Shown in pieces: positions 24,078 through 64,000 of a stretch of DNA of 64,000 nt. How positions within the stretch are numbered: the first letter of the stretch is position 1; every line of letters starts with the position of its first letter. The notes beneath the pieces were generated by a model. It searched no databases. It was not told where the DNA came from and saw nothing but the letters and a program-made list of their open reading frames with translations. The stretch is from contig CAVYSY010000039.1 of the NCBI GenBank assembly GCA_963771175.1, positions 384,001-448,000 on the forward strand. The letters are read 5' to 3'. The position numbers and the translations under genes are program-made. This DNA comes from an uncultured delta proteobacterium. GTDB lineage: Bacteria > Myxococcota > Myxococcia > Myxococcales > Myxococcaceae.

Positions 24078-24161
24078 ACTTGAACTAACCTCTCGGGTCC
24101 AGGGTTATGGAATGATGGCCATTCCCTCGCCACGAGCCCTCTTTCTTCGGAGTCCACGCGG

Positions 24162-25685: not shown

Positions 25686-25686
25686 G

Positions 25687-26469: not shown

Positions 26470-26654
26470 CGTCCTGGCTCCTGGCCCCGATAACGGGCAC
26501 TGCCCGTCGTCCCTCCGCGCCATCCGAAGCGCAGGGCCTTCTTCCAAGTCTGCCCTACTCCCTCGATAACGAGGCGCGGCCGGGGTTCGCATGCCCACTG
26601 CCGAACAGAAGAAGCACGGGGCCTCGGCCTGGAGGGCGCCCGCCAGGCCAGGGC

Positions 26655-27095: not shown

Positions 27096-28391
<1,296 letters not shown>

Positions 28392-28574
28392 CGACCCCGG
28401 TCGACCCGGAGCCTACTAGCCGACACCACCACACCCAACTTCGCCTGGCTGCCCACGTCTCGAACAGCCGTCCGCCAAAATATAGGCTCCGACTGAACCG
28501 GCAGGAAGCCCATCCGGAGTGTCGTCCGGTTGGCTGTGCACCTCCGGACGCGGTCAGCGTTCAGTAACACCCGA

Positions 28575-38235: not shown

Positions 38236-38246
38236 CCCGAGCCCCC

Positions 38247-43932: not shown

Positions 43933-44007
43933 GAGGCACGACCCTAGCCGAGGCCCGCTCATGGTCAATCGCTCGATGCGCACTCTGGCCACCGCCAACG
44001 CCCTTGG

Positions 44008-46881: not shown

Positions 46882-47016
46882 GACCGGGGAGGCTCATCCC
46901 GCCCAGGGAAGACCGTCGGTCTTCTCCGCGAGCCGAACGCTGGGAGCGTCGCGAGCGGATGGCGTCAAGATGTGAAATGATGGCCTTCACGCTCCGTGCG
47001 AGGGAGGACCCATCCG

Positions 47017-48948
47017 GTGAGGACGGCATTCCAGGAAGAGCTCCAGCTCGAGCTGACGCTCACCATTGGTGGCAGGTCCTTCACCATTCCCGGCGGCCAG
47101 GTGAAACACCTGGCCGTGCACCTGGCCAACCACGGCTTCACCGCCTCGGTCACTTTCTGGACCTCGCTGGAGAAGAAGGACGCGCCGCTCTTCACCGCCT
47201 TCCAGAAGCCGGACCTCGTCCAGGTGCGGCTGGCCGTGTCCGCGGTGGATCCCGAGCTCGACTCGCCGCCCGCGCCGCTCGTGCTCCAGGGCCTCGTCCG
47301 CAGCCGCCGCCTCGTGGCCGAGACCCACGGTGCCACCAAGGGCTCCGATCGCGTCTTCCGCCGCTACACCATCGAGTTCGCCGACGCCGCCCAGGTCCTC
47401 TGGCGCCAGCACCGCCCCGTCGAGCTGCTCACCGACATCTCGATGCAGGAGGTGCTCGACGCCCACAAGGCCACCCTCCAGCTCTCCTACGACTGGGCAG
47501 TGCTCCGACAGAAGCAACCCATGCTGTGCCTCGCGCTGGGCGCCGACGCCCCCGAGGTGAGCTTCTACGACTTCGTCCTCTGGTACGTGGCCGCGAACAA
47601 CGGCGTCTGGAGCTACGACAGCCAGAAGAACGAATACCTGCTGGCCGACAGCAAGCCCTCCTCGGGCCAGGCGGCCCCGCTGGGCCCCCTCCGGGTGGAC
47701 AACACGCAGGTGCATCTGCCGCCGCCCATCCGCCACGGCACCCGCGTGCTCAACGCCCTGGCCAATGGGCCCACCACCGCGGCGCTCGAGCAGAACCAGG
47801 CCGTCGCCGGCGTGTCCCACGACGTGATGCTGCGCACGCCCCTCACCTCCGAGGCCGAACAGCGGCAGAAGCTGGAGAAGACACGCCTGCAGGTGCGGCA
47901 GCGCCAGCTCCAGGTGTCCTTCAAGAGGTTCCCCGCGGTGGACGTCTTCCCCGGCGCGCTGCTGCGCCTGGAGGGCTCGCTCTGGCCCTCGGCGTTGACG
48001 GGGCTCGACGAGGACATGCGGGTGCTCGAGCTGGACCTGGAGGCCCACGCCACGAGCGAGGGCAAGCATGACAAGCAGCAGACCCCCTCGGCCCAGTACC
48101 AGGTGCTCCTGGGGGTACGGCTGGAGTCCGCCTCCGACCCGGCGGTCACCCTGCCCCCCTACCGCACCCCGCGCTACCCCATCCATGTCGAGGGTCTGGT
48201 GCACAGTCCCGGCGGAGAGCCCACGGACCGGCGCTACCTCATCGTCGAGGACGAGAAGACCTCCCTCAACTCCTTCCGGATGACGGTGCCACTGTGGAAC
48301 CAGACGGTGAGCGTGCCCGCCGAGCCGATCCACTTCCCCGGCCACTTCTTCTTCCCTCCGTACAAGAACACGCGGGTGATGGTGGCGCTCCACTTCGAGC
48401 GCGCCGAGCTGATCCGCTTCCTCGACTGGAAGGAAGGCGTGCGCACGCCCCAGGACGGACAGGGCGATCAGGTGCTGCTCGGCTGGAACAAGACGAGCCA
48501 GACGGCCATGACGCACGACTTCCAGGACGACAAACCGGTGTGGCGCATGCATCGCACCTCCGGGGGTGACACGCAGGTCGTCCGCATGGGGGAGGGCCAC
48601 CTCTTCATCCAGGTGAAAGAGACGCCCAGCGGAGGCTCCCCCACCCCCACCTACGATGTCTCGCCCCAGGTGCAGGCCGCCAAGGGAGACCTCTCGTCGG
48701 CGGTGGGGGGCGCCATCGGGGAGACCTCGGCCGCCTACCAGGGCGCGATGGCCGCCGTGCGTGCGAAGATGAAGAGCGCCCAGGCGGAGGCGAAGGCGGC
48801 GCTCAGCGGAGCTCGGGCCGAAGTGGGTGGCAAGGTGGCGGAGGCCAAGAGCGGGCTCCAGGGGGCGACGTCTCGGCTGTCCCAGGGCGTGAGCAAGCTC
48901 TCGGGGACGGCGGAGGCGGCCAAGGCGTCACTCAAGAAGCTGCTGTGA
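47017..48948 (+). CDS. VgrG/gp27-like spike-hub paralog (PdpA-like) with a C-terminal helical extension
   Basis: Collinear with 58954..60607 (LTLTIGG, LWRQHxP, SFYDxVLWYV, VEG, PGHFxFPxYK, RFLDW, PQDGQG, IQVKE), plus about 108 extra residues. Confidence 0.72.
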   Translation: MRTAFQEELQLELTLTIGGRSFTIPGGQVKHLAVHLANHGFTASVTFWTSLEKKDAPLFTAFQKPDLVQVRLAVSAVDPELDSPPAPLVLQGLVRSRRLVAETHGATKGSDRVFRRYTIEFADAAQVLWRQHRPVELLTDISMQEVLDAHKATLQLSYDWAVLRQKQPMLCLALGADAPEVSFYDFVLWYVAANNGVWSYDSQKNEYLLADSKPSSGQAAPLGPLRVDNTQVHLPPPIRHGTRVLNALANGPTTAALEQNQAVAGVSHDVMLRTPLTSEAEQRQKLEKTRLQVRQRQLQVSFKRFPAVDVFPGALLRLEGSLWPSALTGLDEDMRVLELDLEAHATSEGKHDKQQTPSAQYQVLLGVRLESASDPAVTLPPYRTPRYPIHVEGLVHSPGGEPTDRRYLIVEDEKTSLNSFRMTVPLWNQTVSVPAEPIHFPGHFFFPPYKNTRVMVALHFERAELIRFLDWKEGVRTPQDGQGDQVLLGWNKTSQTAMTHDFQDDKPVWRMHRTSGGDTQVVRMGEGHLFIQVKETPSGGSPTPTYDVSPQVQAAKGDLSSAVGGAIGETSAAYQGAMAAVRAKMKSAQAEAKAALSGARAEVGGKVAEAKSGLQGATSRLSQGVSKLSGTAEAAKASLKKLL

Positions 48949-48976: not shown

Positions 48977-51299
48977 ATGCAGGAACTGCGCGGCAAGGTG
49001 GCGGAGCTTCGCGGAGAACTGGAGTCCTTCAGCACGGGCGTGGTGGCCCGCCTGACGCCGATCCGGACCGAGCTCGAGACGCTGACGGGCAAGCTCGAGT
49101 CGGCCCTGGCCACCCTGCGCCCCGAGGTGGAGACGGTGGGCGGAGAGCTCTCGAAGAAGATTGATTCCCTGGATGCCGAGCTGGCGAAGATGGAGTCCTG
49201 AGTGAAGGCGCTGTGGACCAGGTTCGACAAGGCCGCGGAAGAGGTGCTCTCCCTGCGGCAGAAGCTCGAGTCCTCCGCGGGCCGAGTCCGCAGCAGCCTG
49301 GAGGCAATCGAGCCGACGGTCTCCTCGCGTTGCCAGGCCCTGGAAGGCCAGGTGAAGAGCAAGGAGCAGTCCTTCGTGCAGCAGCTCGACGGGCTGGGCA
49401 AGGAGGTCGGGCAGCGCCGCGAGTCGCTCGGCTCCGAGATGGCTTCCGCCATCAAGAAGCGCAAGGACGCCCTGCAGGCGAAGCACGAGGAGCGCGAGAA
49501 GCAGCGCCAGGATGAGTACGAGAAGCTCCGCGCTCAGGCCGAGCAGGAGGTGAAGGACACCGCGCAGCTCGAGGCGCGTCTGAAGCAGCTCGAGGACGAG
49601 TACGAGAAGCTCCGTGCTCAGGCCGAGCAGGAGCTCCAGAAGGCCACCGTGGAGCTCGAGGAGCGCGAGAAACAGCTTGAGCAGGAGCTCCAGAAGCTCC
49701 AGGCCAAGGCGGAGGAGCAGCTCCAGGGAGCGACCACGAAACTCGCGGCCGTGACGACGATGGTGCTCGCCCCGATGACGCAGCTCCGCGAGACCATTGG
49801 TCACGAGACCGAGCGGCTGACCCAGACGCTCGACACCGTGATCGCCGAGCCCTCCAACGCGCTGCAGAAAGTCCATGAAAGCGTCAAGTCATCGGGCGAG
49901 ACCTCGAAAGCCGAGGTCCGGCGGCAGATCGGTCAGCTCCGCGCGGGGCTGGAGCCGGTCCGCTCCCAGGTGAAGAGCGCCACCGAGACGGCCACCCAGC
50001 TCCTGGAGACGCTGGAGAACACCGTCGGCACCACGCTCACGACCGGGCGCGACCAGCTCAACCGGACGCTCGATGCGACTCGAGCAGACCGTGGCCGGAC
50101 AGGTGCAGCAACTGGCGGACGGCATCAAGGCCGTGGAGCAGCTCCTCGAGCAGGTGCAGCAGCAGATCGACACGGCCATTACCCAGGGAAGCGAGGCCCT
50201 CGATGCCCTGATGAAAACGGCGCTCACCACCTTCGAGTCCATCCAGGCCCCCGTGAAACAGACCCTCGACGCCGCCTTCTCGGTGCTCGACACCCTGATG
50301 GACACGCTCGCCCAGGTCGAGAAGCAGATTCAGGCGATCTTCACCGCCCTGCCCGAGAAGCTCGAGCAGCTCCAGACGCTCTACAAGACGCTGGTGGGCA
50401 CGCTGGAGTCCCTGCTGGCCAAGGCCGTGCAACTGCTGGAGGCCGTTCCCGCCTCGGATCTGCCCAAGCCACTGGTAGACCCGGCCATGCAGGCCATCAG
50501 CAAGGTGGTGAACCAGATCTCCACCCAGCTCGGCACCATCACCAGCCAGGTGGGCGAGCAGCTCACCTCACTGCAGCAGCAGCTCATCACCCAGGTGGAG
50601 CAGATCCAGACGCAGGCCGTGGCGCAGGTGGATGCGCTGAAGGAACAGCTCGTCCAGCAGATCCAGACCCTGAAGGAGTCGGTGCAGACCAGCATCGACC
50701 AGGCCGTGGCGCAGGTGGAGCAGCTCATCGAGCAGGTGGCGGTGCAGATCGCGACCGCCCGCGACCAGGTGGTCAATCAGGTGGAGGCGCTCAAGGCGCA
50801 GGTGGCCGCGCGCGTGGATGCGCTCGAGGAGCAGGTGAAGCAGCAGCTCGAGGCGTTCCAGCAGACCCTCGACGGCGGGGCGAACGCCGCGACCGATCAG
50901 GTGACGCAGGTGGGCGAGACGATCAACCAGCAGGTGGCCTCCACCCAGGAGCAAATGAAGGCCGGGCTCGACACGGTCAGCACCACGGTGGACTCGGCGC
51001 TCGACGAGGCCAGCAAGGCCCGGGAGCGCATCGAGGCGGAGATCGCCCTGCGGGTGGATCAGGTGCTCGCCACCTTCGCGCAACAGGCCGAGGGGCTGAT
51101 GGACGCGGCGGCGAAACAGGTCGACGCGTTGTCCGCTCAGGTGGACGTGGCCCGGGAACAACTGCTCGCGCCGCTGGACAAGATCGAGACGTCGATCCAG
51201 GAGTCCACCCTCTTCTCCCAGCCGGTGGAGCAGGCTCGCACCTGGCTGGGGACGCTGTTCGACGGGCTCGACGCCCAGGTGCGCTCGCTGGCCGCCTGA
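48977..51299 (+). CDS. Long alpha-helical repeat protein of about 770 aa (in-frame TGA at 49199-49201; frameshift near 50080)
   Basis: ORFs 48977, 49202 and 50073 share Gln/Glu/Leu/Ala-rich composition; 11-residue periodicity; DEYEKLRAQAEQE duplicated 28 aa apart. Confidence 0.7.
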
Positions 51300-51300
51300 C

Positions 51301-51813
51301 TCAGGCGCCGAACTTCGGCGGCTCCGGCATCTTCTCCGGCGGCTTGGGCATCTCCGGAGCCCCCTTGGGGGCTTCCGGCGCCGCGGGCATCTCCGAGGGG
51401 ATGGCCGGCGGAACCGAGTCGCTCAGGATGCGGCTCACGGTCAGCTCGACGTCCACCGCACTGGGCGAGGGCGGGCTGAGCAGCATCTGCCAGTTGCCGT
51501 CCGGAGCGGTGAAGAGGAAGGAGACGGCCACCGAGCCCTCCTTCGGCGCCTTCACCTGGAAGCGCTGGATGGTGCCCGGGTAGATGACCGCCGTATGCAG
51601 CACGGTCTTGTCCGGGGCGCCGACCTTGGCGGCCACCTCGAAGTACGCCTCGTTGGCGTACTGCTTGGGGTCCACCTCGCGAACGAGCATGTACATGGGC
51701 CGGCCCAGGTTGGTCCCGGGCGGGGACTTGATGTTGAGGCTGATGGTGCTCGGCGCACAAGCACCGAGCAGCAACGCGGACAGGGTCGTCAACCGATACA
51801 TGCGTGCGCTCAT
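51301..51813 (-). CDS. Secretion-system outer-membrane lipoprotein (TssJ/IglE-like)
   Basis: Lipobox LLGAC; LNIKSPPGTNLGRPMYMLV resembles the TssJ N-x-x-x-P strand; ATGA-coupled to tssM; Pro-rich tail. Confidence 0.65.
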   Translation of the reverse strand: MSARMYRLTTLSALLLGACAPSTISLNIKSPPGTNLGRPMYMLVREVDPKQYANEAYFEVAAKVGAPDKTVLHTAVIYPGTIQRFQVKAPKEGSVAVSFLFTAPDGNWQMLLSPPSPSAVDVELTVSRILSDSVPPAIPSEMPAAPEAPKGAPEMPKPPEKMPEPPKFGA

Positions 51814-54800
51814 CGCGGCACCTCCCGGAAGGGAACCCAGGGATCTCCCTTGAGTCCGAAGCTGATCTCCACCCCGCGCTTGCTCACGCCGTTGCCCTGC
51901 AGGGCGAGACTCCACTGCCGGCGCTGATCGGAGGTGAGGGTGGCCTCCTCGAAGAGACGGAAGCAGCTCCAGGCCGAGCGATTCCACGGCAACGACAGGT
52001 ACTGGGGCACGTCGCGCGCGGGCGAGCGCAGCTCCAGCACGATGGAGGACACCTGCTGATCCCACCAGCTCAGGGGGAACTCCTGCCAGGTGGGACTCTG
52101 GTTGAAGCCGTACGCGGTCGTCTTGCCGCACTTGAGGGAGGACATGGTGACGAAGACGCCCGTCATCGGCGGCGGAGGCAGGGGCTGAGGCTGCACCTTC
52201 AGCATGAGCGGCCGGGGCCGGCCCTCGTCATCCCACAGCAGCTTCGCCAGGCGCGCCAGCCGGCTGAGGGTGAGCAGCATCTCGTCCGGCAACACCAGCT
52301 TGTCGCGCAGCGGTCCGCGCAGCGACCACTGCGTGCCCCGCTCCACGAACACGCGGGAGAACATCTGGTTCACGAAGATCGAGAAGGCCCCGTCCTTGCG
52401 GCGCAGCACCTCCAGCTCGCCCGGATCCACGTCCTCCTGCGACTCGGGGTTGAAGGGATAGCGCTCCATCATGGGCTTGAGCATGCGCCCCGAGGCCTCT
52501 TCCCACTGCCGCGCCAGGGTGCTCTCCAGCTCCTGCTTGCCCAGGCGCTGCACCTGGAGGAAGGGCTCGAGGAAGGGCCGCCGCAGCTCGCCGGTGATGC
52601 CCTGCTGGTCCAACCACTCCTGGGCCTTGCGCAGGTAGGAGCCCTCCTCCTCGAGGAGCATGGACAGGGCCACCTTCTCCAGCGGCGTGATCATGTCCGC
52701 CAACTCCGCGGTGCCATCGTCGGCCTGGGCCTGCGCCCCCTCCTCCGCGTCCGCCGCCTTGTCCTTCTCCTTGGCCGCGGCCTCGTCCTTGCCGGCCTTG
52801 TCATCGCCGGGCTTGCCCTGACCGGGCTTGGACACGGCGTCCAGCTCGTCATGCATCTGCGCCACCAGCGCGTGGTACGGGGCGAGCGCGGCGTAGTAGC
52901 CGTTCTTGTCCGCCGTCATGAGCTGGATGAGGGGCCGGAAGGGCGCCACGGCGTTGCGCAGCGGCTCGTAGTAGGGCCCCTCCAGCGGCTCGAGGCTGGC
53001 CCGGTCGGCCACGTCGCGCAGCATGTCCACCTGCTCCGAGGACGGCTGGGTGAGCCGGGCCAGCTCGTCGAGCAGCAGCCTGCGCGGCGCGGTGAAGCGG
53101 TAGCCGCGGACGGAGTGGAAGAGGCCCTCGCGGTAGCCCTGGGAGAACGAGCTCACGCGCTTCTGGATGTACGCCTCGCGCTTGGCGGCCACCTCCATCG
53201 GAAGCTGGGCGTTCTTCAGGCGCTGGGTGAAGTCATCCACCAGCGGCTTGAGGTCGGCATCGAAGGGTGTCCGGCTCAGCACCATCTGCCCGTCGTGGAT
53301 GGCGGCCTGAGCACCGACGGTCATCAGGCCGCTCTTCTCGTAGCTCTTGAGCAGGTTCTGCAGCAGCTCGCGCGAGAGCTGGGGCGGGTGGAACTCGAAG
53401 CGCTGCTGCAGCATTTCGATGCTGTACGGGCCATTGCTGTTGCCCGTCAGCCAGAGGCCCTCGCGGGTGAGCAGCTCGGAGGGGGTCATCTTCTCCACCG
53501 CCAGGAAGCCCGCGTAGGCATCCTCCTCCATGCGCAGCACCGCGGCGAGCGTGTCCCGGTTCGCCCTCAACCACTCGAGCAACTCGACGGTGGTCTCGAT
53601 GCCCTGGAAGTGGCGCGTGTTGACCTGCACCTCCGAGGCGTCGAACAGGCTGAGCACGGTGGGCAGAGAGGCGTAGACATCCAGGTCGGCGAGCTGCGCC
53701 TGCAGCCGCTCGCGTTCCTCCCGGCGATGATCGAGCTGCGCCAGCAGCCTCTTGAGATCCTCCCAGCGCAGGTCGCGCTGAGCCAGCGCCTTGGGCTCAT
53801 CATCCAGGGTCTTCCGCAGGAACAGCAGGTGATCCACCCACGGCTTGAGCTGGCCCTCGAACGTCAGCCGCTCCACGTAGGGCCAGCAGGACCAGTCCTC
53901 GTCCGCGTTGTTGGAGAGCTGCACGGCCCCGCGGCGGCAGGGCGGAGTGCGCTCCCAGGGCACGTCGCTGGCGAGGACGTAGGTGGCCACCAGCGGCTCG
54001 CGCAGCTCGAGCGCGGAGATCCACGTACGGCTCTTCTCGATGTTGGAGGTGGCCGACATCCCGCCCTCCCCGGCCTGGGCGTCACGCCCACGCCGCGAGT
54101 GCAGGGGCTGAACGGTGGAGCTCACGAAGGTGCCGAGGCCGTCTCCATTCGAGGCATGGAGGGTGGCCAGCAGATAGACCACCTGCTCGGGGCGGCAGTC
54201 CTGGGGCTGCTTGCGGCAGTGCTCGAGGGCGGGGCGGAGGTGGCTCTCCCGGATGCCACGGGCCAGCCGCTGACGCAGATCCAACGTCTCGTCGGGGAAG
54301 CTGGAGCTCAGTGGCGGCCACCAGCGCTCGGCCCGCTTGAGCGTGAGGAGATCGTCGGCCGCCGCGTTCACCCGCTGTTCGACGACCTCTCCCCTCCCCT
54401 CCAGGCCCTGCTCGCGCAGCTCCGCGACCGTGTCCTCGAAGCGCTGGAGCTGCTCCTGCGCATCCCCCAGCAACGAGTAGAAATTGGCGTACGCGAGCAC
54501 CACCGGCAGGCAGCCCGCCACGGCGATCAGCACGGCCCGCTGCAGGTGCGTGCGCAGGTAGCGCTGGCGCAGCGACTGGGTGGAGCTCTCCTCGGCCACC
54601 ACGGAGAGCGTGTCGCTGGCGCGCGCCTCGGGCGTGAGAGAGGAGAAGAAGACCCGGGTGATCCGGGGCTTGTAGGAGAGGGTGTCGCCCTCCAGCAGCG
54701 CCGAGACGAAGCGGCCGAGCGCCGAGAAGGAGCGCCCGCCCTGCGAGTAGAAGTGCTCCAGGCGCTCGAAGTCGTCCACCGGGAGCGAGGTGAGGCCCAG

Positions 54801-55703
54801 GGCCAGGTACTGCTCCTGCCCCGCCAGCAGCGAGGCCAGCTTGTCCTCCTCGCCCTGCTTGGGGATGTCGAAGGAGAGCGGCACGCCGTGCTTCTTCAGC
54901 AGCCGGGCGAAGTCCTCGAAGCCCTCCAACCCATCCATGTGCGTCAGGCACAGGCGGGTCTCCACCGGGGAGCCGCGAGCCTCGGACATGAGGTTGAGCT
55001 TGCCGCGCAGGAGCTGGGCCATGCGCCGCTGATCATCGGGCGGAGTGTCGGAGAGCCAGCGGACGTCCAGGACGATGACGGCCAGGCCCTTCTGCCGGTG
55101 GCTGAAGCACTTGCTCCACATCCGGCGCAGGGCACTGCGCGCAGGGAGCGACTCATCCTCCAGCAGCGGGGCGGACACCTCCTGCACCATGCAGTCGGGC
55201 CCCAGGTACACCTGAAGCAGGGAGTCCGCCGTGTAGCTGGGGAGGAACTGGCGGGCCTGGCGCTGCCAGTCCACGTCCAGGCCGATGAGCTGCGTCTTGC
55301 CGCTGCCAGCGGGCCCGAGCACCACCACGGTGGGTAGATCCACCACGGCGGCGCGGTTGGCCCAGGGCAATCCGGAGAGGAAGGCCTGGCGCACCTTCAG
55401 CAGCCGGTTGACGGCCATGGGAGGAGGACCGCTGGAGGCCGGAGCCCCGGCGCGCCGCTGGCGCCACCACGGCACGAGCCACTTCACCGTGGCGTACACG
55501 ATGAAGACCACGAGGCCCAACGCCAGCAGCCACATCAGGTACGGGCTCACCGTGAGCCAGATCTTCTGGAGCGTCGTCGCGCTCGCGTTGGCCGACTGCG
55601 CCCCGGTGTTGAGCGCCTGCGTGCCCGCGGCCAGCGCCTTGGTCGGATCTCCCCCGGCCGGCGCCTGCGACACCACCATGTTCAGCAGATGCGACTGCAC
55701 CAC
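51810..55703 (-). CDS. tssM: TssM/IcmF (PdpB-like) membrane-complex protein
   Basis: 1297 aa; N-terminal TM; LPTVVVLGPAGSGKT Walker A; LCLTHMDGLEGFEDF (IcmF LTKxDxxxGFxxF); second TM; RYPF near the C-terminus. Confidence 0.8.
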   Translation of the reverse strand: MVQSHLLNMVVSQAPAGGDPTKALAAGTQALNTGAQSANASATTLQKIWLTVSPYLMWLLALGLVVFIVYATVKWLVPWWRQRRAGAPASSGPPPMAVNRLLKVRQAFLSGLPWANRAAVVDLPTVVVLGPAGSGKTQLIGLDVDWQRQARQFLPSYTADSLLQVYLGPDCMVQEVSAPLLEDESLPARSALRRMWSKCFSHRQKGLAVIVLDVRWLSDTPPDDQRRMAQLLRGKLNLMSEARGSPVETRLCLTHMDGLEGFEDFARLLKKHGVPLSFDIPKQGEEDKLASLLAGQEQYLALGLTSLPVDDFERLEHFYSQGGRSFSALGRFVSALLEGDTLSYKPRITRVFFSSLTPEARASDTLSVVAEESSTQSLRQRYLRTHLQRAVLIAVAGCLPVVLAYANFYSLLGDAQEQLQRFEDTVAELREQGLEGRGEVVEQRVNAAADDLLTLKRAERWWPPLSSSFPDETLDLRQRLARGIRESHLRPALEHCRKQPQDCRPEQVVYLLATLHASNGDGLGTFVSSTVQPLHSRRGRDAQAGEGGMSATSNIEKSRTWISALELREPLVATYVLASDVPWERTPPCRRGAVQLSNNADEDWSCWPYVERLTFEGQLKPWVDHLLFLRKTLDDEPKALAQRDLRWEDLKRLLAQLDHRREERERLQAQLADLDVYASLPTVLSLFDASEVQVNTRHFQGIETTVELLEWLRANRDTLAAVLRMEEDAYAGFLAVEKMTPSELLTREGLWLTGNSNGPYSIEMLQQRFEFHPPQLSRELLQNLLKSYEKSGLMTVGAQAAIHDGQMVLSRTPFDADLKPLVDDFTQRLKNAQLPMEVAAKREAYIQKRVSSFSQGYREGLFHSVRGYRFTAPRRLLLDELARLTQPSSEQVDMLRDVADRASLEPLEGPYYEPLRNAVAPFRPLIQLMTADKNGYYAALAPYHALVAQMHDELDAVSKPGQGKPGDDKAGKDEAAAKEKDKAADAEEGAQAQADDGTAELADMITPLEKVALSMLLEEEGSYLRKAQEWLDQQGITGELRRPFLEPFLQVQRLGKQELESTLARQWEEASGRMLKPMMERYPFNPESQEDVDPGELEVLRRKDGAFSIFVNQMFSRVFVERGTQWSLRGPLRDKLVLPDEMLLTLSRLARLAKLLWDDEGRPRPLMLKVQPQPLPPPPMTGVFVTMSSLKCGKTTAYGFNQSPTWQEFPLSWWDQQVSSIVLELRSPARDVPQYLSLPWNRSAWSCFRLFEEATLTSDQRRQWSLALQGNGVSKRGVEISFGLKGDPWVPFREVPR

Positions 55704-55706
55704 GGC

Positions 55707-56018
55707 TCAACCCCCCCCGCGGGCGGCGCTCTTCCCGGAGCGGCCAGAGCGCGCGGCCAACTGGAGTGCCTCCAGCACGTCTTCCAGCCCGTCCAGGGAC
55801 TGCAGCAGTTCCTCGTGTCGGGCCTCATGTTCCTTGGGCGCCAGGCGCGTGCCCCCCGCCTCCGGGAAGAGCGCCGCCACCCCCGAGCGAACCTCGCCCA
55901 GCAGGGGCTCCACGCCCGCGCTCAGCGCGCCCAACTCTGAGTGGATGGCCTTCTGCAGGCGCTCCAGTTGCGTCCGGGGCCCCTGGGGCTCCTTCATCTT
56001 CTGCGCCTCGTCCTTCAT
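55707..56018 (-). CDS. Small helical hypothetical protein within the secretion operon
   Basis: ATGA overlap with the dotU stop; its own stop lies 3 nt before the tssM start. Confidence 0.6.
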   Translation of the reverse strand: MKDEAQKMKEPQGPRTQLERLQKAIHSELGALSAGVEPLLGEVRSGVAALFPEAGGTRLAPKEHEARHEELLQSLDGLEDVLEALQLAARSGRSGKSAARGGG

Positions 56019-56653
56019 CGCGAAAGCCACCACAGTAGCACTGGTACGGCCACCACCACGAATCCGGACGCCGCGTAGTAACGCAGGGGGAAGGCGTGGA
56101 CGAGCGGGGCCTGGGCAGCGGCGGGCGGCGGAGCGGGCATCGACTCCGGCGTGGGGATGCGAGCAGCGAGGCGCTCCTTGTACTCGCGCAGCCGGGCCGT
56201 GTTGCCCGCGTAGCGGCCCTCGAAGCCGGCGGTGAGGCAGAAGTGCAGCAGCTCGAAGACGAGCGGCGAGGCGCCCTTCTGCACCATCTTCTCGTCGGCC
56301 AGCTCGTAGAAGCGATCTCCGCCCGAGTCGATGCCGAACAGCTTGTACTGCAGCAGCGGCCAGTCCGACTGCTCCACCTCGGCGAGCCGGCGCAGCACCA
56401 TCTCGTCCACGAGGTAGACGAAGGGGCGCAGCGCCTCGTCGATCTCCTCTTCGCGGTAGGCCCCGCCCAGGGCCTTCTGGAGATCAGCCACCTCGGCCAG
56501 GAGCTGCTGCTGGAGCAGGGCCAGGCCCTGGGTGCCCACCCGGATGCGCGTGCGCTCCTCGCCCGAGCCGGGCTCGGCGGGCAGCGACTGGTCCAGCAAC
56601 GAGCGCACCTGCCGGTGCGACCGGAGGATGCTCTGCCAATGCTCGAGTTTCAT
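56015..56653 (-). CDS. tssL: TssL/DotU (about 212 aa, no OmpA domain)
   Basis: YLVDEMVL, WPLLQYKLFGIDSGGDRFY, CLTAGFEGRY and a C-terminal TM helix. Confidence 0.88.
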   Translation of the reverse strand: MKLEHWQSILRSHRQVRSLLDQSLPAEPGSGEERTRIRVGTQGLALLQQQLLAEVADLQKALGGAYREEEIDEALRPFVYLVDEMVLRRLAEVEQSDWPLLQYKLFGIDSGGDRFYELADEKMVQKGASPLVFELLHFCLTAGFEGRYAGNTARLREYKERLAARIPTPESMPAPPPAAAQAPLVHAFPLRYYAASGFVVVAVPVLLWWLSR

Positions 56654-58300
56654 GAGGGTACCTTCAACGGGAAGGAGCCAGCCCCAGCGACGGAAGGCCG
56701 CAGCACCACCGAGGCGTCGCCATTCCACGCCTCCAGGAGCTGATGCACCTGCTCCAGGAAACAAGCCACGAGAGGTTCGGCGCCAGAGTCGAAGGGCTCC
56801 AGCATCAGCTCGTAGACGTGCAGCAGGCCGGAGCCGCGCAGCGCACCATCCGGGGCCACGGTGGCCTTGAGCTCCCGCAACCAGGGGATGACGCGGCGGA
56901 AGGGCTCCTCGGCGGGAGTGCCGAGGTAGTTGAGCAACGCGGCCAGCTCGTTGCGATCGAGCGTGGACTTGACCTTCCAGGCCAGCAGTCGGGTCAGCCC
57001 CGCCACGTCGTTGCGCAGCGCGCTCTCTCGGTGCGGCTCGAGCCGGCCCACGAGCTGCCAGCCCAGACCCTCCACGTGCCGACCCGGGGTGGAGACGCTC
57101 ACCCGGCCAATGGCCTCGGAGACGAACTGCGGCTGGTACCAGAGGGCCTCCACGAGCAGCTTCTGCGGCTCGGTGAAGGCCTCGGGCATGCGCACCAGCA
57201 GGCTGTGGCGCGTGCGCATCTCCTCGTCGAGCGTCTCGTCCAGCTCGTAGCTGGGCCCCTCGCCCGGGAGGAAGGCCGGACGCATGGGCGTGCGCCCCGA
57301 CTTGGCCAGCACGTACACGCCGGTGACCGAGTGGAGCTGCAGATCGCGCCCGGCGGTCATGCCGCGAATGGGGTACTCGGAGCGGGTGCCGTCGGCGAGG
57401 ATGGGCTGGGCGGGCTCGGCCTTGAGGTTCTCCACCGGCACGACGAAGGGGTGGAGGATGTCCGGGTGGCTGCGAGCGGCCCACCGACCAGGACTTGTCC
57501 AGGTCGAGGCACAGGCTGAAGCGGGTCCACTCCTTGCGGTTCGAGGGCACCGACAGGTGGAGGAAGAGCCCCTGCTCGGGCATCTGGAAGAAGGCGCGCA
57601 CGCGCTGCAGCGGGTGCTCGTAGTCGCTCGCGTCATCCAGCTCGGCGGGAGCGTTGCCGAAGGAGAACTCGCACGGAGTGCACTGTGAGTTCTCGTCGGC
57701 CCGCGCGTCGTACACCACGCCCACCTGCAGGAGCTGGTTGCGCAGCGCGTGGAAGACGGCCAGCGAGGGACGGTACTCGTCCAGGTGGCGCACGAGCAGG
57801 CTGAACAGGCCCACCGGATCCCGGCGGGGGAAGGCGGACTCGAAGCGGAGGATGAGCCGCCAGCGCCCATCCGGCAGGCGCACCACGTCCGTGCCCGCCA
57901 TGGAGATGGGGAGGATGCGCAGGTGACGCCGGGTGCGGAAGGCGCCGGCCACTCCATGCACGGGGGAGAGCCGCAGCTCGGTGCCTCGGGGAAGCACCAC
58001 GCTCTCGGTCATCTTCTCCGCGGGCAGCGCCTGCACCAGCGCCACCGCGGGCAGCGGCTGCAGCAGGAAGTCGAAGAAGGAGGAGAACAGGCGCAGCCAG
58101 GTGGAGCGCAGGTTGTGCTGCGTGGCCAGGCGCGTCTGCACCGAGAAGAAGGCCATGGACTCGATGAGGCGCCGCACGTGCGGGTCCTCCCGGTCCAGCG
58201 GAACGGTGGGGTGCGAGTTGAGGAAACGCTGCCGGAAGCGCTCGAGCGCATCCAGCTCATTCAGGTAGTCCAGGTAGATCCGCTCCGACGAATCGCTCAC
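56650..58300 (-). CDS. tssF: TssF-like baseplate wedge protein (frameshift near 57480)
   Basis: YLNELDALERFRQRF...HP...DPHVRRLIESMAFF, LLQPLPAVALVQ, VVLPRGT, FFQMPE and VPVENL match TssF. Confidence 0.78.
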
Positions 58301-58307
58301 CGCGCCC

Positions 58308-58910
58308 TCACCCCAGCTTCACGAGCGAACCACCGACGGTGGTCATCGAGCCCTTGAGGTCCGCCATGCCCGAGGACTCGAGGCCGAGCTTGGCCTGGGC
58401 CGCGACCTTGATCATGGGGGCGGCGAGTTCCGCCTGGGCCTGGCCAGCCATCTTCAGGTTGACACCCTCCACCTTGTTGTCCCCACCCGAGGCCACCAGG
58501 CTCGTCTGCATGCCCTTCATGTCGAGCTTGGAGGTCGCCTCGATGGCCACGTTGGCGTTCGAGGACAGCTTGGCGTCCTGAGTGGCGCTCTGGGTGAGCT
58601 TGGCGCTGGAGGTGAAGGTCATGTCCTTGGTGCTCTCGAGCTTGAGGATGTCCTGACTGGTCCAGCTCGAGGCCTTCGCCGATTTGAGGGTGAGCGTCCC
58701 GGTGGCGTCCACGGTGAAATCCTTGCACGTGACCGTGACGCTGTCCTGCTTCTGGACGTAGGTGCTCGTCTCCTCGGGCCCCTTCACCGTGATGGTGATG
58801 GACGTGCCGTCCATGACCACCGTCTGGGTGATCTGGTCGTCGGCGTTCTCCACCTTGACGGTGACGCCCTTCTCCTTGTCCAGCTCAACGGTGCAGACGA
58901 GCTTGCCCAT
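58308..58910 (-). CDS. Stand-alone gp5-like beta-helix spike (short VgrG, 200 aa)
   Basis: Thr/Ser/Lys-rich beta-turn repeats about 8 aa long; ends ADLKGSMTTVGGSLVKLG, like VgrG tip termini. Confidence 0.72.
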   Translation of the reverse strand: MGKLVCTVELDKEKGVTVKVENADDQITQTVVMDGTSITITVKGPEETSTYVQKQDSVTVTCKDFTVDATGTLTLKSAKASSWTSQDILKLESTKDMTFTSSAKLTQSATQDAKLSSNANVAIEATSKLDMKGMQTSLVASGGDNKVEGVNLKMAGQAQAELAAPMIKVAAQAKLGLESSGMADLKGSMTTVGGSLVKLG

Positions 58911-58953
58911 GGTTCCTCGCCTCCTCGGTAGTGGAGCCGACGGCCCCCTCGCT

Positions 58954-60607
58954 TCACGACTGCTCTTCCTTCACCTGGATGAGCAGTGTGCCCTCGTCTA
59001 GCTGGATCTTCTGCGTGTCCTTCGCATTGGTGCGCTGCATCAGGAACACGGGCTTGTCGTCCGTGTAGTAGTGCTTGAGCGCGGTACCGTTCTCGGGCGT
59101 CTTGCCCACCAGGAGCTGCACGCCCTGCCCGTCCTGAGGCATGCGCGCGCCGGTGCGCCAGTCCAGGAAGCGCTTGATCCACGCGCGCCGGAAGTCGAGC
59201 GCCACCAGCACCCGCTCGCCCTTGTAGGCGGGGAAGTAGAAGTGGCCGGGCAGCAGGTTGGGGTTGAAGGGCGCGGGGATGATCTGCTCCGCGAAGAGGG
59301 GGATCTTCACCTTGTACCCGTCCAACGAGGTGTCCGAGTCCGTGTAGGCCTGCCAGGTCTCGTCCGCGTCCGCGCCCTGCTCGCTGACGATGAAGCCCTC
59401 CACGTAGCGGGGATAGAGCGGGGGCTGCCAGGCGGGCAGATCCACGTGGGGCTCGTCCTTGGGCTCCAGCCGGGTGCTCATGCGGAAGGAGAAGAGCGCG
59501 TACGAATCGCCGTACACCTCGTCCTCGCCCTGCTCGCTCGACACCTCGCCCGACAGGTGCATGCTGCGCACGCGGAGGACCTGATCCTTGGCCACGCCCG
59601 CGGCGCCCCAGGCGTCGTTGGCCGGCAGCTTCACCAGCGCCCCCGGGGTGAACGCCTTCTCGGGGAAGGAGCGCCAGCTCAGCTCCATCTCCGGGCCCCG
59701 CCCCTTCAGCCGCGCCGTCTCCAGGTCCACCCGAGCCTGCACCTCGTCGGCGATGGCGGTGCACAGCAGCACGTCCTGGCGGATGCCGGTGACGGCCTGC
59801 GTTTGCGTCACGGCCTGGGTCTGGGGGCTCTCGGCCGTGGCGTTGAGCACCGTCACATCGTGACGGATGACCTCGGGCAGCAGCACCTCCAGCTCGGCCA
59901 GGTTGTCCTCGAACAGCTTCAGCGGCGTGCCCGAGCTGTCCTTGGCGCCCGTGAACTTGTAGCCGTGCGCCGCGTAGTCGTAGGTGAACACCCCCGCGTG
60001 GCCGTGCACGTACCACAGCACCCAGTCGTAGAAGCTCGCCCCACCCTGCGGATCCAACCCCACGAAGATCATGGGGTGCGTGGTGCCCAGGCCCGCATCC
60101 CAGTCGTAGGCGAGGCTGATCTTCTCGCCCTTGTGCGCGTCCAGCACGTCCTTGACCGTCTTGGAGGTGTAGAGGGCACAGGGGTAGTGCTGCCGCCACA
60201 GCAGCCGCGCGGCGTCCAGGAAGCGGATGCCATAGCGGCGATGGAGGATGAGGTCGCTCCCTCCGGTGGTGATGACATCTCTCGACGAGCGACTTCTCGG
60301 TGACGAAGCCCTTGACCGTCAGCGCGGTATGGCTCGGCCGTCCCGAGGTGTCCGGAAGGACGGCCTTCACCGCGAGCGACACCTCGACCAGGTCCGACTT
60401 GAGGAAGTCGGCCAGCAGCTCGTCCTTGTCCTGACCACCGCTGGCCTGGTTGTCCGTCAGCAGGAACTCCACCTCGCCCTCCAGACCCCAGCTCCACAGG
60501 TCCAGGGCGAAGCGCTTGATGCTGCCGGCGATGACCTCGTGCGCCTTGCCGCCGATGGTGAGGGTGAGCGTGACGGCCAGCCGCTCCTCGAAGGTGTGCG
60601 CCATCAT
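58954..60607 (-). CDS. VgrG/gp27-like spike hub without a needle (PdpA-like; frameshift near 60280)
   Basis: About 550 aa, beta-rich; KGFVTEK, then D-x-A-x-LLWRQH, TVKDVLDAH, SFYDWV and an OB-fold-like G...YKVKIP...P..GERVLVA; lies between tssE and the spike gene. Confidence 0.68.
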
Positions 60608-60997
60608 GTCTCCTCGTCCTCCTCTACCCGCACCTGGCCACTCACGGTGTGGAAGAGGAGGCGCAACGTGCAGGGCGTTCCGTGCAGCGTCGCCGTCAGC
60701 ACGTAGTGCAGCCACAGCCCCGAGTCCTGACCACGCAGCTCCAGCTCCGCGTCCTGCAGGCGCGGCTCGTGGTGCTGGATCGAGTGCAGCATCTCGCCGG
60801 TGAGCGTCTTCATCAGCACCTGGGTGCCGAACTTCTCCGTGTAGCGCCCCAGGCCGAAGCCCTCGACGAAGTAGCCGTAACCCTCCTTGGTGTTGAGCAC
60901 GGACTCGAGGTTCTGCCGCACCTGCTCCAGCTCGCCATTGCGCGCCCTGGCGCTGCCAGGCACCGGTGAACTTGTCGAGGAAGGACGGGCGTGCCAT
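60604..60997 (-). CDS. tssE: TssE / gp25-like baseplate protein (frameshift near 60950)
   Basis: SFLDKF, VRQNLESVLNTKEG, FGL and SIQHHEPRL motifs. Confidence 0.82.
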
Positions 60998-60998
60998 C

Positions 60999-62253
60999 TC
61001 AGGCCCTGCGCCAGAAGAGGAAGACCTGGGTGCCCTGCAGCGCCGGGGTGACGTAGAAGGCCATGCCGTTGTCGCGCAGAGCGTACTGCCACTCCTCCCC
61101 CAGCGACAGCTTGTACCAGGAGATCTCCGGACCGAAGGCGTGGGGGAAGGCGGGGTGCGGCACGTGCTGGAAGGGAATGCCCCGGAGCGCCAGCCGGCGC
61201 ACCACGGGCAGTCGGGAGGGACTCGCCACCTTCACTCCCTCCAGGGAGGGCGGCTGGCTGGGGTCCTCGCTGCGCACCAGCAGGTACAGCTCGCTCTGGA
61301 CGCCCGCCTCCAGCGAGGGCAGGGGCGAGAGGACGAACTGACCCTCCCGGCAATCGAAAGGCTTGTAGGTGAGCCGCGTGTCCTCGGGACGGAAGGCCCG
61401 GTTGAGCAGCGTCATCCACCCCCACAGCCCCTCGCCCAGCTCGTCATGGACGTAGGTGGGCAGGGACTCATCGGGCACCAGCTCCAGGTAGCAGCACACC
61501 TCGAAGTAGAACCGGCGCAGGGCATCGAAGAAGTGGTACGGGTGCGGGCAGATGCCGTTGCGCATGTCGCTGCGCAGGGCCTGCAGGCGGCGCACCTCGA
61601 GCAGCGTGCGGCGGGCGCTCGCGAGCCGCTCGCCGCGCTGGTAGCTGTCCTGCAGCAGGGTGCGGAGCTGGCCGTGGGCCTTCTCCAGCAACATGTCCAG
61701 CTCGCCGAGCAGCTCGTTGAGGAAGGGGTTGCGGCCCACCAGCAGCAGCGGCGGCACCTTCCGGGCGGAGGGGCGCCACGCCCCCTGGAGATCCTTGGAG
61801 AAGGCCACCAGCTCCAGCGAGGAGAGGGCCCGATCCGCGGACTGCTCGCTGGAGAGCTGCAGCCGGTGCAGCACGCGCTGCACGTTGGGCGGCTCATCCG
61901 CGTAGAGCGGCACGCCCTTCGGTGCCGCGCGTCTCCTCCAGCAGGTGGAGGAAGACGGTGACCTCCGCGCGGCCGGTGGCCTCGAGGGAGAACGACGGCA
62001 GGGCCGCATTGCCCGGCACGTTCACCAGGAAGCCGCCTGGCATGACGGCGGTCAGAGAGGAGATGGAGAGGCTGCCCTCGGCCAGCAGCGCCTCGCTCCA
62101 AGCGAGCGAGGCGATACCGACCTGGGGCAGCCCGGACAGCTCGGCATGCAGCCGCGCCTCGGCCGAGAGTGCTTCGTCCTGGGCGCGGAAGTGCTCGGGA
62201 AGGAGCGTCTGGCCGACCTGCCAGCGGACCCGCGCGAGCTTGTGGCGCTGCAT
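60999..62253 (-). CDS. tssK: TssK (IglD-like) baseplate subunit (frameshift near 61920)
   Basis: RVRWQVGQTLLPEHFRAQD, VMPGG, VPPLL, HP..FF, YVHD, VKVASP and ALRGIP motifs. Confidence 0.82.
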
Positions 62254-62284
62254 GTCGTTGATTCCTGTCGAAAAGAGACGAGGC

Positions 62285-62868
62285 CTAGGCCGCGGTCTCG
62301 GTGACGCCCCACTGCTTGACGAGGTTCTTGCCGGAGCCCGTGGCCATGTTCACCGTCTGCTCCAGGGTCTGCGGCTTGATGCCGACCTGGAGGGTGTAGT
62401 TCTTGGGCGACTGCACCTCGCTGGACGGGTCGTCCGCCACCGACAGGTTCAGGTCATCCCCGTTCTTCTCCAGGATGCCCTTGAGCTCCGCGTCGATGTA
62501 GTTCGACTTGAAGTACTTCTTCTGGCGCCGGGTCGTACTCGTAGATGACGTAGCTGAACATCACCTCGACGTTGGCCCAGGTGCCCAGCAGCGCGGCGGC
62601 CAGCGATCTGCTTGTTGTTGGTGGAGATCTGCGCGGAGAAGTACATGGCGTCCGTGATGCCCGTCTCCCACAGGTAGTGGTTGAGCACGCCCACCACCTT
62701 GGTCGCGAGGGCCTTGTCCGGCTGCTCCGGATCCTTGATGGTCTCCTGATCGGCCGTCAGCTCCACATCACCGACCTTCAGCTTGGTGATGTAGCCCACC
62801 GACGACTGCTTGTCCTTCTTGAAGTTGAAGCCCTGGTAGACGTCCAGGGAACGAGCGAATTGAGGCAT
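62285..62868 (-). CDS. Putative tail-tube protein (IglC-like position; no canonical Hcp motif; two frameshifts)
   Basis: About 193 aa after stitching: MPQFARSLDVYQGFNFKKDKQSSVGYITKLKVG...YEYDP..KKYFKS...VKQWGVTETAA. Strong RBS (AAGGAGGGAG), very biased codons, located between tssC and tssK. Confidence 0.6.
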
Positions 62869-62914
62869 TGCTCCCTCCTTCTTTGCCTGAGTAGTGACTA
62901 CGACGGGCGCCCGG

Positions 62915-64000
62915 TCATCCCAGGCGAGACTCCAGCATCAGCTCCACATTGAGGCCTTCGAACTGGATGTGCGGCAGGACGGCCACCTTGCAGTCGTACC
63001 AGCCGATCTCTCCCGGGCGCGACTCCACCACGACGCTGGTGGCCTTGAACGGGAAGCGCCGCAGCGTGAGGTCGTCCGGGTTGACCACCGTGGTGACGTA
63101 GCCCGACAGCCACGACGTCGATCTGCCGCTGGACGTAGCCGGCATCGGCGGTGCTGCCGATGTTGTCGCGCATGATGCTCTTGATGTAGTGCGCGAGCCG
63201 GGTGATGGAGAACGTGTAGGCCAGGTTGGTGACGAGCTGCGAGTTCTCCGAGTCCTTCGGGTCCTTGAACTTCTTGGCCCGCTTGATGGACTGGGTGCTG
63301 AAGAACGTCGCCTCACCGGAGCCCTTGCGGTACACCAGCGGGATGAAGCCGTTGCGAGCGAACTCGAACTCGCGGTAGTCCGGGATGGCGATCTCCACCG
63401 GCGCCTGGATCATCTTCTGCCCGCGCAGGGTGAAGGTGTCCACCGGCAGGCCGGTGACGAGCCCGCCGCCCTTGGGGCCGCGGATGGACTGGCACCAGCC
63501 GGACTGCTCGAAGGACTTCACCAGGTTGCGGCCCAGCAGGTAGGCCGTGTTGCCCCACAGGTACTTCTTGGAGTCGCCCTGGGCGTCCTCCTTGAAGTTG
63601 AGCACGTCGCAGGGGTTGCTGTCCGGATCCCACGGCTGGCGCACCACGTAGCGCGGCAGCGTCAGGCCGATGTACGCGGCCTCTTCCTTGTCGCGCAGCT
63701 CGTTCCACTTGCTGTAGCGCGGGTGGCTCAGCACGCCGTCCAGGTTCTTGAGCGACTCGAGCTGCTCGACGCTGTCGCAGTCGAAGAACTTGGGGCTGGC
63801 CGAGGCGATGAACGGGCAGTGCGCGGCGTTGGCCACCTTGCCCATGCGCTCCAGCCAGGTGATGTCCGGCGCGCGAGGAGGTGAACTCGTACAGGCCCAG
63901 CATCACGCCGTAGGGACGGCCGCCGAACTGGTCGTACTCCTTGATGTAGATCTTGTCGAAGAGGGCGCTGGAGAAGATGCTGCTCGAGTTCTTCTCGAAG
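62915..64000 (-). CDS. tssC: Contractile sheath large subunit TssC (IglB-like); partial, frameshifted
   Basis: EYDQFGGRPYG, AAHCPFIAS, YIGLTLPR, YLWGN, IRGPKGGG, RLAHYIK..MRDNIG and PHIQFEGL motifs. Confidence 0.92.

Follow-up and report, generated by a model that had tools for sequence, protein, structure and literature searches.

The window analysed here is a stretch of 64,000 nucleotides (positions 384,001 to 448,000 of contig CAVYSY010000039.1) with a G+C content of about 69%, and its last part, from 51301 to 64000, is filled by a minus-strand gene cluster of a type VI secretion system (T6SS). Frame plots of the G+C content at third codon positions (GC3) and stop-to-stop open reading frames (ORFs) show that coding is continuous from 64000 down to 51301. 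The genes follow one another in the order tssC, a gene of 193 amino acids (aa) referred to here as X, tssK, tssE, a hub gene, a 200-aa spike gene, tssF, dotU, a small ORF, tssM and a lipoprotein gene (Table 1). This is the order proposed in an initial annotation of the letters alone, and it is borne out by Pfam matches on the window's own frames and by tblastn with intact orthologues; the ATGA start/stop overlaps that had been listed at 60604, 56650, 56015 and 51810 are all four present. The Pfam families found on these frames are VipB and VipB_2 in TssC, T6SS_VasE in TssK, GPW_gp25 in TssE, T6SS_TssF, DotU, weak IcmF domains in TssM and IglE_N in the last gene. No Pfam family is matched on the window frames by the 193-aa gene, the hub of about 550 aa or the ORF of about 108 aa, and the 200-aa spike gives sub-threshold matches only. 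The tssC gene is truncated by the window end, and tblastn with the TssC protein of the closest relative places its residues from about 137 onward inside. What does not hold is the picture of an operon readable throughout, because eight frameshifts were overlooked in the initial annotation.

Table 1. Genes of the T6SS cluster in the window, in order of transcription.
Feature	Coordinates	Strand	Remarks
tssC, IglB-like large sheath subunit	62918..64000	-	5' end beyond window; three frame pieces; insertions at 63868 and 63115-63117
X, putative IglC-like tube protein (193 aa in intact relatives)	62288..62868	-	two insertions, ~62607 and ~62526
tssK, baseplate, IglD counterpart	60999..62253	-	one insertion, 61918
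tssE, gp25-like baseplate wedge	60604..60997	-	one insertion, ~60937-60941; alignment to L007 ambiguous near 60940
PdpA-like gp27-type hub without needle domain (549-550 aa in relatives)	58954..60607	-	insertion 60280
short VgrG-like beta-helical spike, 200 aa	58308..58910	-	intact
tssF, IglH counterpart	56650..58300	-	insertion ~57473
short dotU/tssL	56015..56653	-	intact; Pfam DotU 8.5e-22
small ORF, ~108 aa	55707..56033	-	intact; 78% identical to L016 orthologue
tssM, PdpB counterpart, 1297 aa	51810..55703	-	intact; 85% identical to L016, full length
IglE-like outer-membrane lipoprotein	51301..51813	-	intact; lipobox LLGAC (Cys19); start overlaps tssM stop

Relatives of the cluster were collected by a genome scan with a profile built from an alignment of 16 hubs. 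The scan matched 161 stretches, of which 87 were confirmed, and 80 loci were kept with flanks of at most 10 kb. Many of these loci are cut by contig ends, which explain many of the gene absences. The closest locus, L016 of Vitiosangium sp. GDMCC 1.1324, is 88.0% identical in DNA over 15.4 kb and carries the cluster unbroken. It begins with genes for an Ig-repeat protein, a 563-aa AMP-binding-like protein, a DUF4280 protein, a 354-aa protein, a TssG-like protein and TssB, and continues with TssC, X, TssK, TssE, hub, spike, TssF, DotU, small ORF, TssM and IglE-like lipoprotein. It follows from this order that the window is without only the first five or six genes. By comparison with the L016 sequence, the genes for TssB, the TssG-like protein, the IglI-family protein (the 354-aa product), the DUF4280 (IglG-like) protein and the AMP-binding-like protein should lie just beyond the window end. 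Consistently with the relationship to the Francisella system first proposed for the cluster, this upstream part as seen in L016 contains no hcp, full-length vgrG or clpV. Within about 10 kb, no Hcp, VgrG/Phage_GPD, ClpV, TssJ or TssA family scores above threshold in L016 (Pfam and NCBIfam) or in L043, a locus from Desulfobacteraceae (NCBIfam), and Pfam finds no Hcp, full-length VgrG, ClpV, TssJ or TssA in the window cluster either. Three loci from Thermodesulfobacteriota (L043, L063 and L077) have the order TssM, IglE-like, AMP-binding-like, TssB, TssC, X, TssK, TssE, hub, spike, TssF and DotU, with the TssG-like and IglI-like genes after DotU. Besides L016, intact loci include L007 (Archangium gephyra), L014 (Cystobacter fuscus) and L077 (Syntrophus buswellii).

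Francisella encodes on its pathogenicity island (FPI) the T6SS known as T6SS-ii, and the gene order of the FPI is iglA-B-C-D. Table 1 of Clemens et al. 2018 equates IglAB with TssBC, IglC with Hcp, PdpA plus VgrG with VgrG, IglG (with a question mark) with PAAR, IglD with TssK, IglE with TssJ and PdpB with TssM, and gives ClpB for ClpV. A 2018 review lists the Francisella counterparts of TssE, TssF and TssG as unknown.

An exhaustive search with the L016 TssC retrieved 5756 relatives. Thirty-one TssC representatives at 43-69% identity are followed by P0272 (375 bits, 40%), identified by exact look-up as the Cysteiniphilum 'intracellular growth locus iglB' protein; below P0272, save for a few short fragments, all TssC relatives are 30-40% identical. 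A FastTree tree was built from 155 rows, namely 133 of 150 representatives, 21 loci and the window fragment, after 17 representatives with fewer than 390 aligned residues and the partial L052 had been dropped. It separates, with support 100, the 27 top representatives, 22 hub-type rows (the 21 locus rows and the window fragment) and IglB from 105 others (50 vs 105), and IglB and the low-G+C metagenomic protein P0271 stand at the base of the in-group. An IQ-TREE analysis under the site-heterogeneous model LG+C20+F+G4 used 66 of the 155 rows: 28 from the in-group, one in three of the 'other' rows, and four manual additions. The split between the 26 hub-type rows with Cysteiniphilum IglB and P0271 on one side and 38 others on the other received an ultrafast bootstrap (UFBoot) of 100 and an SH-aLRT of 100, and no long branches were flagged in this tree. 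The 38 others include a Pseudoalteromonas TssC, which among PDB entries matches the sheaths of M. xanthus and V. cholerae best. The tree carries no i1-i5 subtype labels.

Direct comparison with the sequences of eight solved sheaths agrees with the trees. The Hyalangium TssC P0003 matches IglB first, with 385 bits vs 319-362 for the other seven, and a Syntrophus TssC also matches IglB first, with 437 vs 320-379. In contrast, the Pseudoalteromonas TssC, used as the canonical control, matches IglB last of the eight, with 263 vs 388-455. By sequence, the large sheath subunit can therefore be assigned to the IglB lineage, as the initial annotation had proposed from sheath motifs. These motifs are all present and PHFQLE is absent, whereas they are spread over three reading frames and are not strictly IglB-specific: Cysteiniphilum IglB has PHVQLEG at the site where the present clade has PHIQFEG. 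Many of the 50%-cluster representatives of the TssC clade numbered P0241-P0270 are 600-1300 aa long, and several begin with a TssB-like N-terminus. They suggest either that TssB and TssC are naturally fused in these proteins or that gene calling in metagenomes read through.

The 193-aa protein X has no Pfam or NCBIfam match in the window or in L016. An AlphaFold2 (AF2) model of the L016 protein has a mean predicted local distance difference test score (pLDDT) of 87.1 and a predicted template-modelling score (pTM) of 0.85, and its sole Foldseek match in the PDB at E<=0.001 is IglC 2qwu_A (E 7.9e-6; TM-scores 0.67/0.64), superposed over 203 columns of the 207-residue chain. The next matches are Hcp proteins at E>=0.026. 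The predicted fold points to X as an IglC-type tube protein in place of Hcp. The reading of X as a non-Hcp gene of about 193 aa thus stands as regards its IglC-like fold and its lack of an Hcp match, whereas the ORF itself exists in the window only when read across two shifts. A profile search of a set of 5.8 billion proteins found 459 relatives of X; those named among the 120 matches listed are labelled 'hypothetical' or, wrongly, DUF4136, and the name IglC does not occur among them.

The hub likewise matches no Pfam or NCBIfam family in the window or in L016. When the hub profile A1 is compared with all PDB sequences, PdpA 6u9e_A is the only significant match (E 4e-5), the other listed match having an E of 1.7, and an AF2 model of the hub gives three PdpA-VgrG entries as Foldseek ranks 1-3 (E 1.2e-16 to 4.9e-16, TM 0.42-0.44). 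Among 250 relatives of the hub, those named in the 120 matches listed carry the NCBI name 'hypothetical protein'. The spike profile A3 matches Francisella VgrG 6u9e_B, a chain of 189 residues, best of 9 listed PDB sequences (E 3.1e-6), and the alignment spans 152 of 197 profile positions, which is most of both proteins; the next matches are the C-terminal helices of long VgrGs. Consistently, the L043 spike matches the NCBIfam model NF041249 T6SS_TssI_Fran at 2.2e-4. These sequence and model comparisons indicate that the spike is divided between two proteins, a PdpA-like hub and a VgrG of very short length, and the PdpA-VgrG structure suggests by analogy that the two proteins would contact each other. 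A tip protein may be provided by the DUF4280 gene, which in L016 matches its Pfam family (1e-36) and, with an E of 5.6e-19, the T6SS_IglG model; the group of DUF4280 PAAR-like proteins was founded on IglG (Lays et al. 2016).

The lipoprotein gene lies directly after tssM, overlapping it by ATGA, and its product scores above the Pfam cut-off for IglE_N, with an E of 1.2e-28 for the window protein and 3.4e-29 for that of L016, so that the FPI-like arrangement recognised at the outset is confirmed. The lipobox Cys19 is invariant in 26 orthologues. The NCBIfam model NF041245 T6SS_IglE is matched below cut-off at 6e-10 in L016 and 1.8e-15 in L043, and the window lipoprotein alone has no PDB match. 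A further Francisella-type component is the 354-aa protein, which matches the NCBIfam family IglI_fam at 2.2e-84 in L016 (283.8 bits, cut-off 100) and at 2.7e-95 in L043. TssK of L016 scores above the cut-off of TIGR03353 (4e-107). TssE matches TIGR03357 below cut-off in L016 (2.5e-11) and above it in L043, and Pfam GPW_gp25 is found in both the window and L016. TssF matches Pfam T6SS_TssF with its N-terminal part, and the L043 protein matches positions 27-433 of the 464 in the IglH/TssF model NF041246 (1.1e-13). DotU of L016 matches TIGR03349 and TssL_short, both below cut-off. TssM shows weak matches to Pfam IcmF-related_N and IcmF_helical in the window and a match to TIGR03348 below cut-off in L016 (2e-16).

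The cluster therefore resembles the Francisella T6SS-ii in many respects. It has a sheath that groups with IglB, a tube protein of predicted IglC fold for Hcp, a PdpA-like hub with a VgrG of about 200 aa, a short DotU, and a tssM gene followed directly by an IglE_N lipoprotein gene; the clusters of its relatives also encode a PAAR-like tip of the DUF4280 type and a member of the IglI family; no ClpV is encoded in the cluster; and the order tssB-tssC-X-tssK parallels iglA-B-C-D. F. tularensis VgrG has 164 aa according to the 2018 review. However, the myxobacterial cluster keeps a gp25-type TssE, a TssG-like gene and a TssK above the canonical cut-off, its hub has about 550 aa vs 820 aa in PdpA, and a conserved AMP-binding-like gene comes in addition in its lineage. 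Rather than being intracellular pathogens, its hosts are anaerobes and predators that live freely in soil. The canonical T6SS-i of V. cholerae (VipA/B), P. aeruginosa (H1) and M. xanthus shares recognisably homologous TssB/C, TssE/F/G/K and TssL/TssM. In contrast to T6SS-i, the cluster is without an Hcp, full-length VgrG, ClpV, TssJ or TssA family match within about 10 kb in relatives, its TssC is 33-40% identical to other TssC representatives vs 43-69% within its own clade, and this TssC lies outside the 38 other TssC representatives at 100/100. T6SS-iii and T6SS-iv (Amoebophilus) are described as likewise non-canonical contractile secretion systems. T6SS-iii of Bacteroidota is without TssJ/L/M and uses TssN-R; the present cluster differs in having TssL and TssM, and no TssN-R family is matched in L016 by Pfam or NCBIfam.

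We consider it highly probable, at roughly 85%, that the cluster is a non-canonical T6SS that is homologous to and groups with the Francisella T6SS-ii, and that the window contains the downstream two-thirds of a complete system. The initial proposal of a free-living relative or new subtype of T6SS-ii is supported gene by gene through the links to IglB, IglC, PdpA, VgrG and IglE_N. The cluster is best described as a sister lineage of T6SS-ii, or as part of a broadened T6SS-ii. Because TssE and a TssG-like protein are recognisable, TssK scores as canonical and four Francisella-specific cut-offs are missed, strict membership is unsupported.

Several observations weigh against the relationship to T6SS-ii, and some of them would fit a divergent subtype of T6SS-i in which the odd tube, the split spike, the lipoprotein and the lack of ClpV arose by convergence or the grouping with IglB by long-branch attraction. 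In L016, TssB, TssC and TssK score above the canonical TIGRFAM cut-offs, and TssE, TssF, DotU and TssM match below cut-off; the presence of a gp25-type TssE stands against the 2018 review, in which none is listed for Francisella. In L016 and L043 the Francisella-specific NCBIfam cut-offs are missed for IglE (39-57 bits vs 75), IglG (69 vs 200), IglH (20-51 vs 75) and TssI_Fran (21 vs 100), and no pdpC, pdpD, pdpE, iglF or anmK match was found there with Pfam and NCBIfam, the coverage of all five by these models being unchecked. The sequence match between hub and PdpA spans only about 95 residues, the hub model is mediocre (pLDDT 60.4) with a TM of 0.44 to PdpA, and other gp27/VgrG hubs, including ordinary VgrG hubs, also match it strongly (E 1e-13 to 1e-10). 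The link between X and IglC consists of one predicted model at 11% identity; it was not found by sequence, a profile of 28 X orthologues giving unrelated proteins as its best PDB matches (E 0.16). The IglE-like profile puts the solved IglE first in the PDB with an E of 0.98, which was not counted as evidence, and the L043 lipoprotein (L043:3120-3623) weakly matches the canonical TssJ model (9e-4). Since this lipoprotein matches both models, its sequence hints that IglE and TssJ are homologous. The TssC tree is unrooted, has no T6SS-iii/iv outgroup and contains a single named IglB, which comes from Cysteiniphilum and not from Francisella proper. Only 2 'other' rows carry organism names; look-ups of 20 proteins named only Cysteiniphilum IglB, a Myxococcales metagenome-assembled genome (MAG), the Pseudoalteromonas TssC and a Bacteroidota MAG. 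Finally, the monophyly of the hub-type rows against the IglB pair reaches only 78/80.

Against a T6SS-i subtype, at least six independent components agree in pointing to Francisella: IglI_fam is above cut-off, IglE_N is matched at 1e-28, PdpA is the only significant PDB sequence match of the hub, Francisella VgrG is the best match of the spike, IglC is the only significant fold match of X, and IglB ranks first for this sheath and last for the canonical TssC. The split at 100/100 was obtained under a site-heterogeneous model chosen to counter artefacts of long branches, and none of the end branches was flagged as long. We thus regard a T6SS-i subtype as distinctly improbable. The models of the hub and the spike also resemble the baseplate hubs of phages and of extracellular contractile injection systems (eCIS), which would fit an extracellular or phage-tail-like particle rather than a cell-anchored T6SS. 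However, the membrane complex of TssM, DotU and lipoprotein as well as TssK are present and conserved, and to our knowledge none of these is a part of eCIS; the sheath proteins score above the cut-offs of the T6SS-specific TssB and TssC models, and no tail-fibre, tape-measure or lysis genes are seen in L016. Such a particle is hardly conceivable here.

If the components of the T6SS-ii-related system act as their homologues do, TssM, the short DotU and the IglE-like lipoprotein would form an envelope-spanning anchor, by homology with the solved parts of other T6SSs, and TssK, TssE, TssF, the TssG-like protein and the IglI-family protein would form the baseplate. TssB and TssC would assemble into a contractile sheath that encloses a tube built from the IglC-like protein, and the tube would be capped by a split spike composed of the PdpA-like hub, the 200-aa VgrG beta-helix and the DUF4280 (IglG-like) tip. 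Contraction of the sheath would then expel the tube and the spike with their cargo; amoebae, fungi or prey were put forward as possible targets in the initial annotation. Because no ClpV is encoded nearby in the relatives, the sheath may be recycled by the housekeeping ClpB, as has been reported for Francisella. A ClpX gene lies in the window at 27099-28412 on the minus strand, and no ClpB or ClpV is found in the Pfam-scanned part of the window.

The eight frame breaks are uncompensated single-base (+1) insertions. They are seen in GC3 plots, split Pfam matches, tblastn and DNA alignments to L016, L002 and L007, and each is one extra base in the window relative to these three relatives; the alignments show no deletions, in-frame stops or larger lesions among the cluster breaks. 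The pieces of TssC lie in three frames (VipB positions 65-104 and 103-300; VipB_2 positions 2-46 and 48-112), and tblastn with L016 TssC covers residues 137-496 at 93-96% identity. The pieces of X correspond to residues 1-87 and 115-193 of the L016 protein at 90-93% identity, TssK matches T6SS_VasE positions 1-93 and 127-427 in two frames, and residues 1-20 and 2-130 of TssE are found by tblastn in different frames. The broken genes are 90-96% identical in protein to L016, except for the badly aligned TssE piece. Genes outside the cluster are split between frames as well, namely those for PrkA, peptidase S58, a response regulator, the neighbouring apolipoprotein-like protein and Hsp70, the last with profile positions 1-241 in one frame and 239-501 in another, and for PrkA, Hsp70 and peptidase S58 the frame arithmetic fits +1 insertions. 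The split housekeeping-type genes (PrkA, Hsp70, peptidase S58 and the response regulator, in this order) lie at 18891-21275, 24084-26490, 42599-44007 and 38236-38988 of the window and have no stops at the splits; a TonB-dependent receptor is perhaps also split, possibly near 5341. A 315-aa TssC fragment has been deposited in the public protein set as this genome's own protein, indicating that the shift belongs to the deposited assembly.

Because all breaks are +1, housekeeping genes are split alike and the protein identity to L016 is high, the eight frame breaks are most probably insertion errors of the assembly, which seems to carry such errors as a whole. In that case the organism probably has an intact system. 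A cluster that is decaying into a pseudogene array in this strain, with real frameshifts and no apparatus made, would account for their uneven density: eight fall within about 6.4 kb (57473-63868), vs none in the next 6.1 kb and at least five confirmed ones in the other 51 kb. This would also agree with the TssC fragment in the deposited record and with a fragmentary second locus nearby (45390-48948), which shows that rearrangement of such genes has occurred. However, decay of this kind would have to spare the cluster all lesions other than single-base +1 insertions, Hsp70, PrkA, peptidase S58 and the apolipoprotein-like gene bear the same signature, and the broken TssC and TssK are 93-96% identical to L016, no less than the intact spike, DotU, TssM and IglE-like protein at 80-86%. 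We therefore judge decay in this strain unlikely. Programmed frameshifting and an alternative genetic code were rejected, since no motif is common to the breaks, each of them is a base that relatives do not have, and housekeeping genes without any connection to the cluster are split too.

A second hub gene lies at 46996-48948 on the plus strand. This orphan paralogue encodes 650 aa and shares 39% identity with the L016 hub over 547 residues; an Ala/Lys-rich tail of about 100 aa is added at its C-terminus. The gene after it, at 49202-51299 (+), codes for about 700 aa with apolipoprotein repeats and has a frameshift of its own near 50046-50077. The two genes are convergent with the main cluster, the apolipoprotein-like gene also flanks the L016 cluster, and together they resemble a module of 'orphan spike plus cargo'. 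The ORF at 45390-46700 (+), upstream of this hub, contains sheath fragments only (VipA profile positions 57-125 and VipB positions 3-63), which share a frame and leave too little space for a complete tssC. Either it remains from a duplication of tssBC or it is a sheath-like adaptor in its own right. Among the 80 loci, L060, L066 and L076 (and L064, L068 and L071) likewise have a hub around which few or none of the cluster's remaining genes can be detected within 10 kb. Hubs of this orphan kind may thus be common, like the orphan vgrG genes of canonical systems.

The lineage is present in a myxobacterium as first described, but it reaches beyond this group. The 80 loci comprise 61 from Myxococcota (Archangiaceae, Myxococcaceae and Polyangiaceae, including two Sorangium), 15 from Thermodesulfobacteriota (Desulfobacteraceae, Syntrophaceae including Syntrophus buswellii, Syntrophobacteraceae and others) and one each from a 'Deltaproteobacteria' MAG, a Psychromonas MAG, an unplaced Pseudomonadota MAG and a Planctomycetota MAG. 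The TssC piece of the window finds intact proteins of 496 aa, of which that from Hyalangium gracile is 96% identical where the two align, and further matches in Archangium, Cystobacter, Stigmatella, Myxococcus, Corallococcus and Pyxidicoccus. As judged by blastp, the spike and TssK are each detected in 71 of the 80 loci, TssF in 69, TssM in 67, X in 64, the IglI-like protein in 63, the IglE-like lipoprotein in 60, the AMP-binding-like protein in 55 and the DUF4280 protein in 47. The small ORF is found in 42, myxobacterial loci only, and neither it nor its L016 orthologue matches a family in Pfam or NCBIfam. The AMP-binding-like protein (L016:1439-3130) is a distant relative of adenylate-forming enzymes, about 563-590 aa long across loci. 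Its gene occurs in both Myxococcota and Thermodesulfobacteriota and adjoins the DUF4280 gene in L016 and tssB in L043, L063 and L077. We know of no AMP-binding-like component in a T6SS. This gene (g02) was considered as an IglF counterpart; its size and its position beside the DUF4280 gene are the only grounds, and the assignment is not claimed.

T6SS-ii has been described as confined to Francisella. The TXSScan model for T6SSii comprises 17 mandatory profiles. Abby et al. 2016 report 30 T6SSii systems, all of them from Francisella, in 18 genomes of a set dating from 2013, and a 2026 abstract describes T6SSii as unique to the species of Francisella; the initial annotation gives Francisella and close relatives as its range. 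No description of such a cluster outside Francisellaceae was found in the literature searched, subscription journals and bioRxiv supplements lying outside the search. The lineage is thus new to this literature, yet not to every database: the NCBIfam IglI family scores above cut-off on non-Francisella proteins, which suggests that it was built to reach beyond Francisella. In public annotation, the named relatives of the IglC-like tube and the PdpA-like hub among the matches listed appear as 'hypothetical protein'. One comparative study describes the T6SS genes of some Corallococcus and Stigmatella species as 'highly degenerate or absent', and these may be the present system scored with canonical models.

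The distribution admits a wider, tentative reading, in which T6SS-ii would be the tip of an old and widespread class native to Myxococcota and Thermodesulfobacteriota, and the island of Francisellaceae would have been acquired by horizontal transfer and then stripped down. Such a class would have its own IglC-type tube, PdpA-type hub with a short VgrG, IglE-type lipoprotein, IglI-type baseplate factor and adenylate-forming-enzyme-like subunit. Because the support for hub-type monophyly is limited, the TssC tree allows IglB to lie inside the clade and not only beside it. We regard this scenario as possible but less likely than not. A sister lineage of T6SS-ii in culturable soil bacteria would give the pathogenicity island an evolutionary origin, would supply intermediates through which Francisella proteins can be matched to TssE, TssF and TssG, and would offer non-pathogenic hosts for studying the IglC/PdpA-type apparatus.

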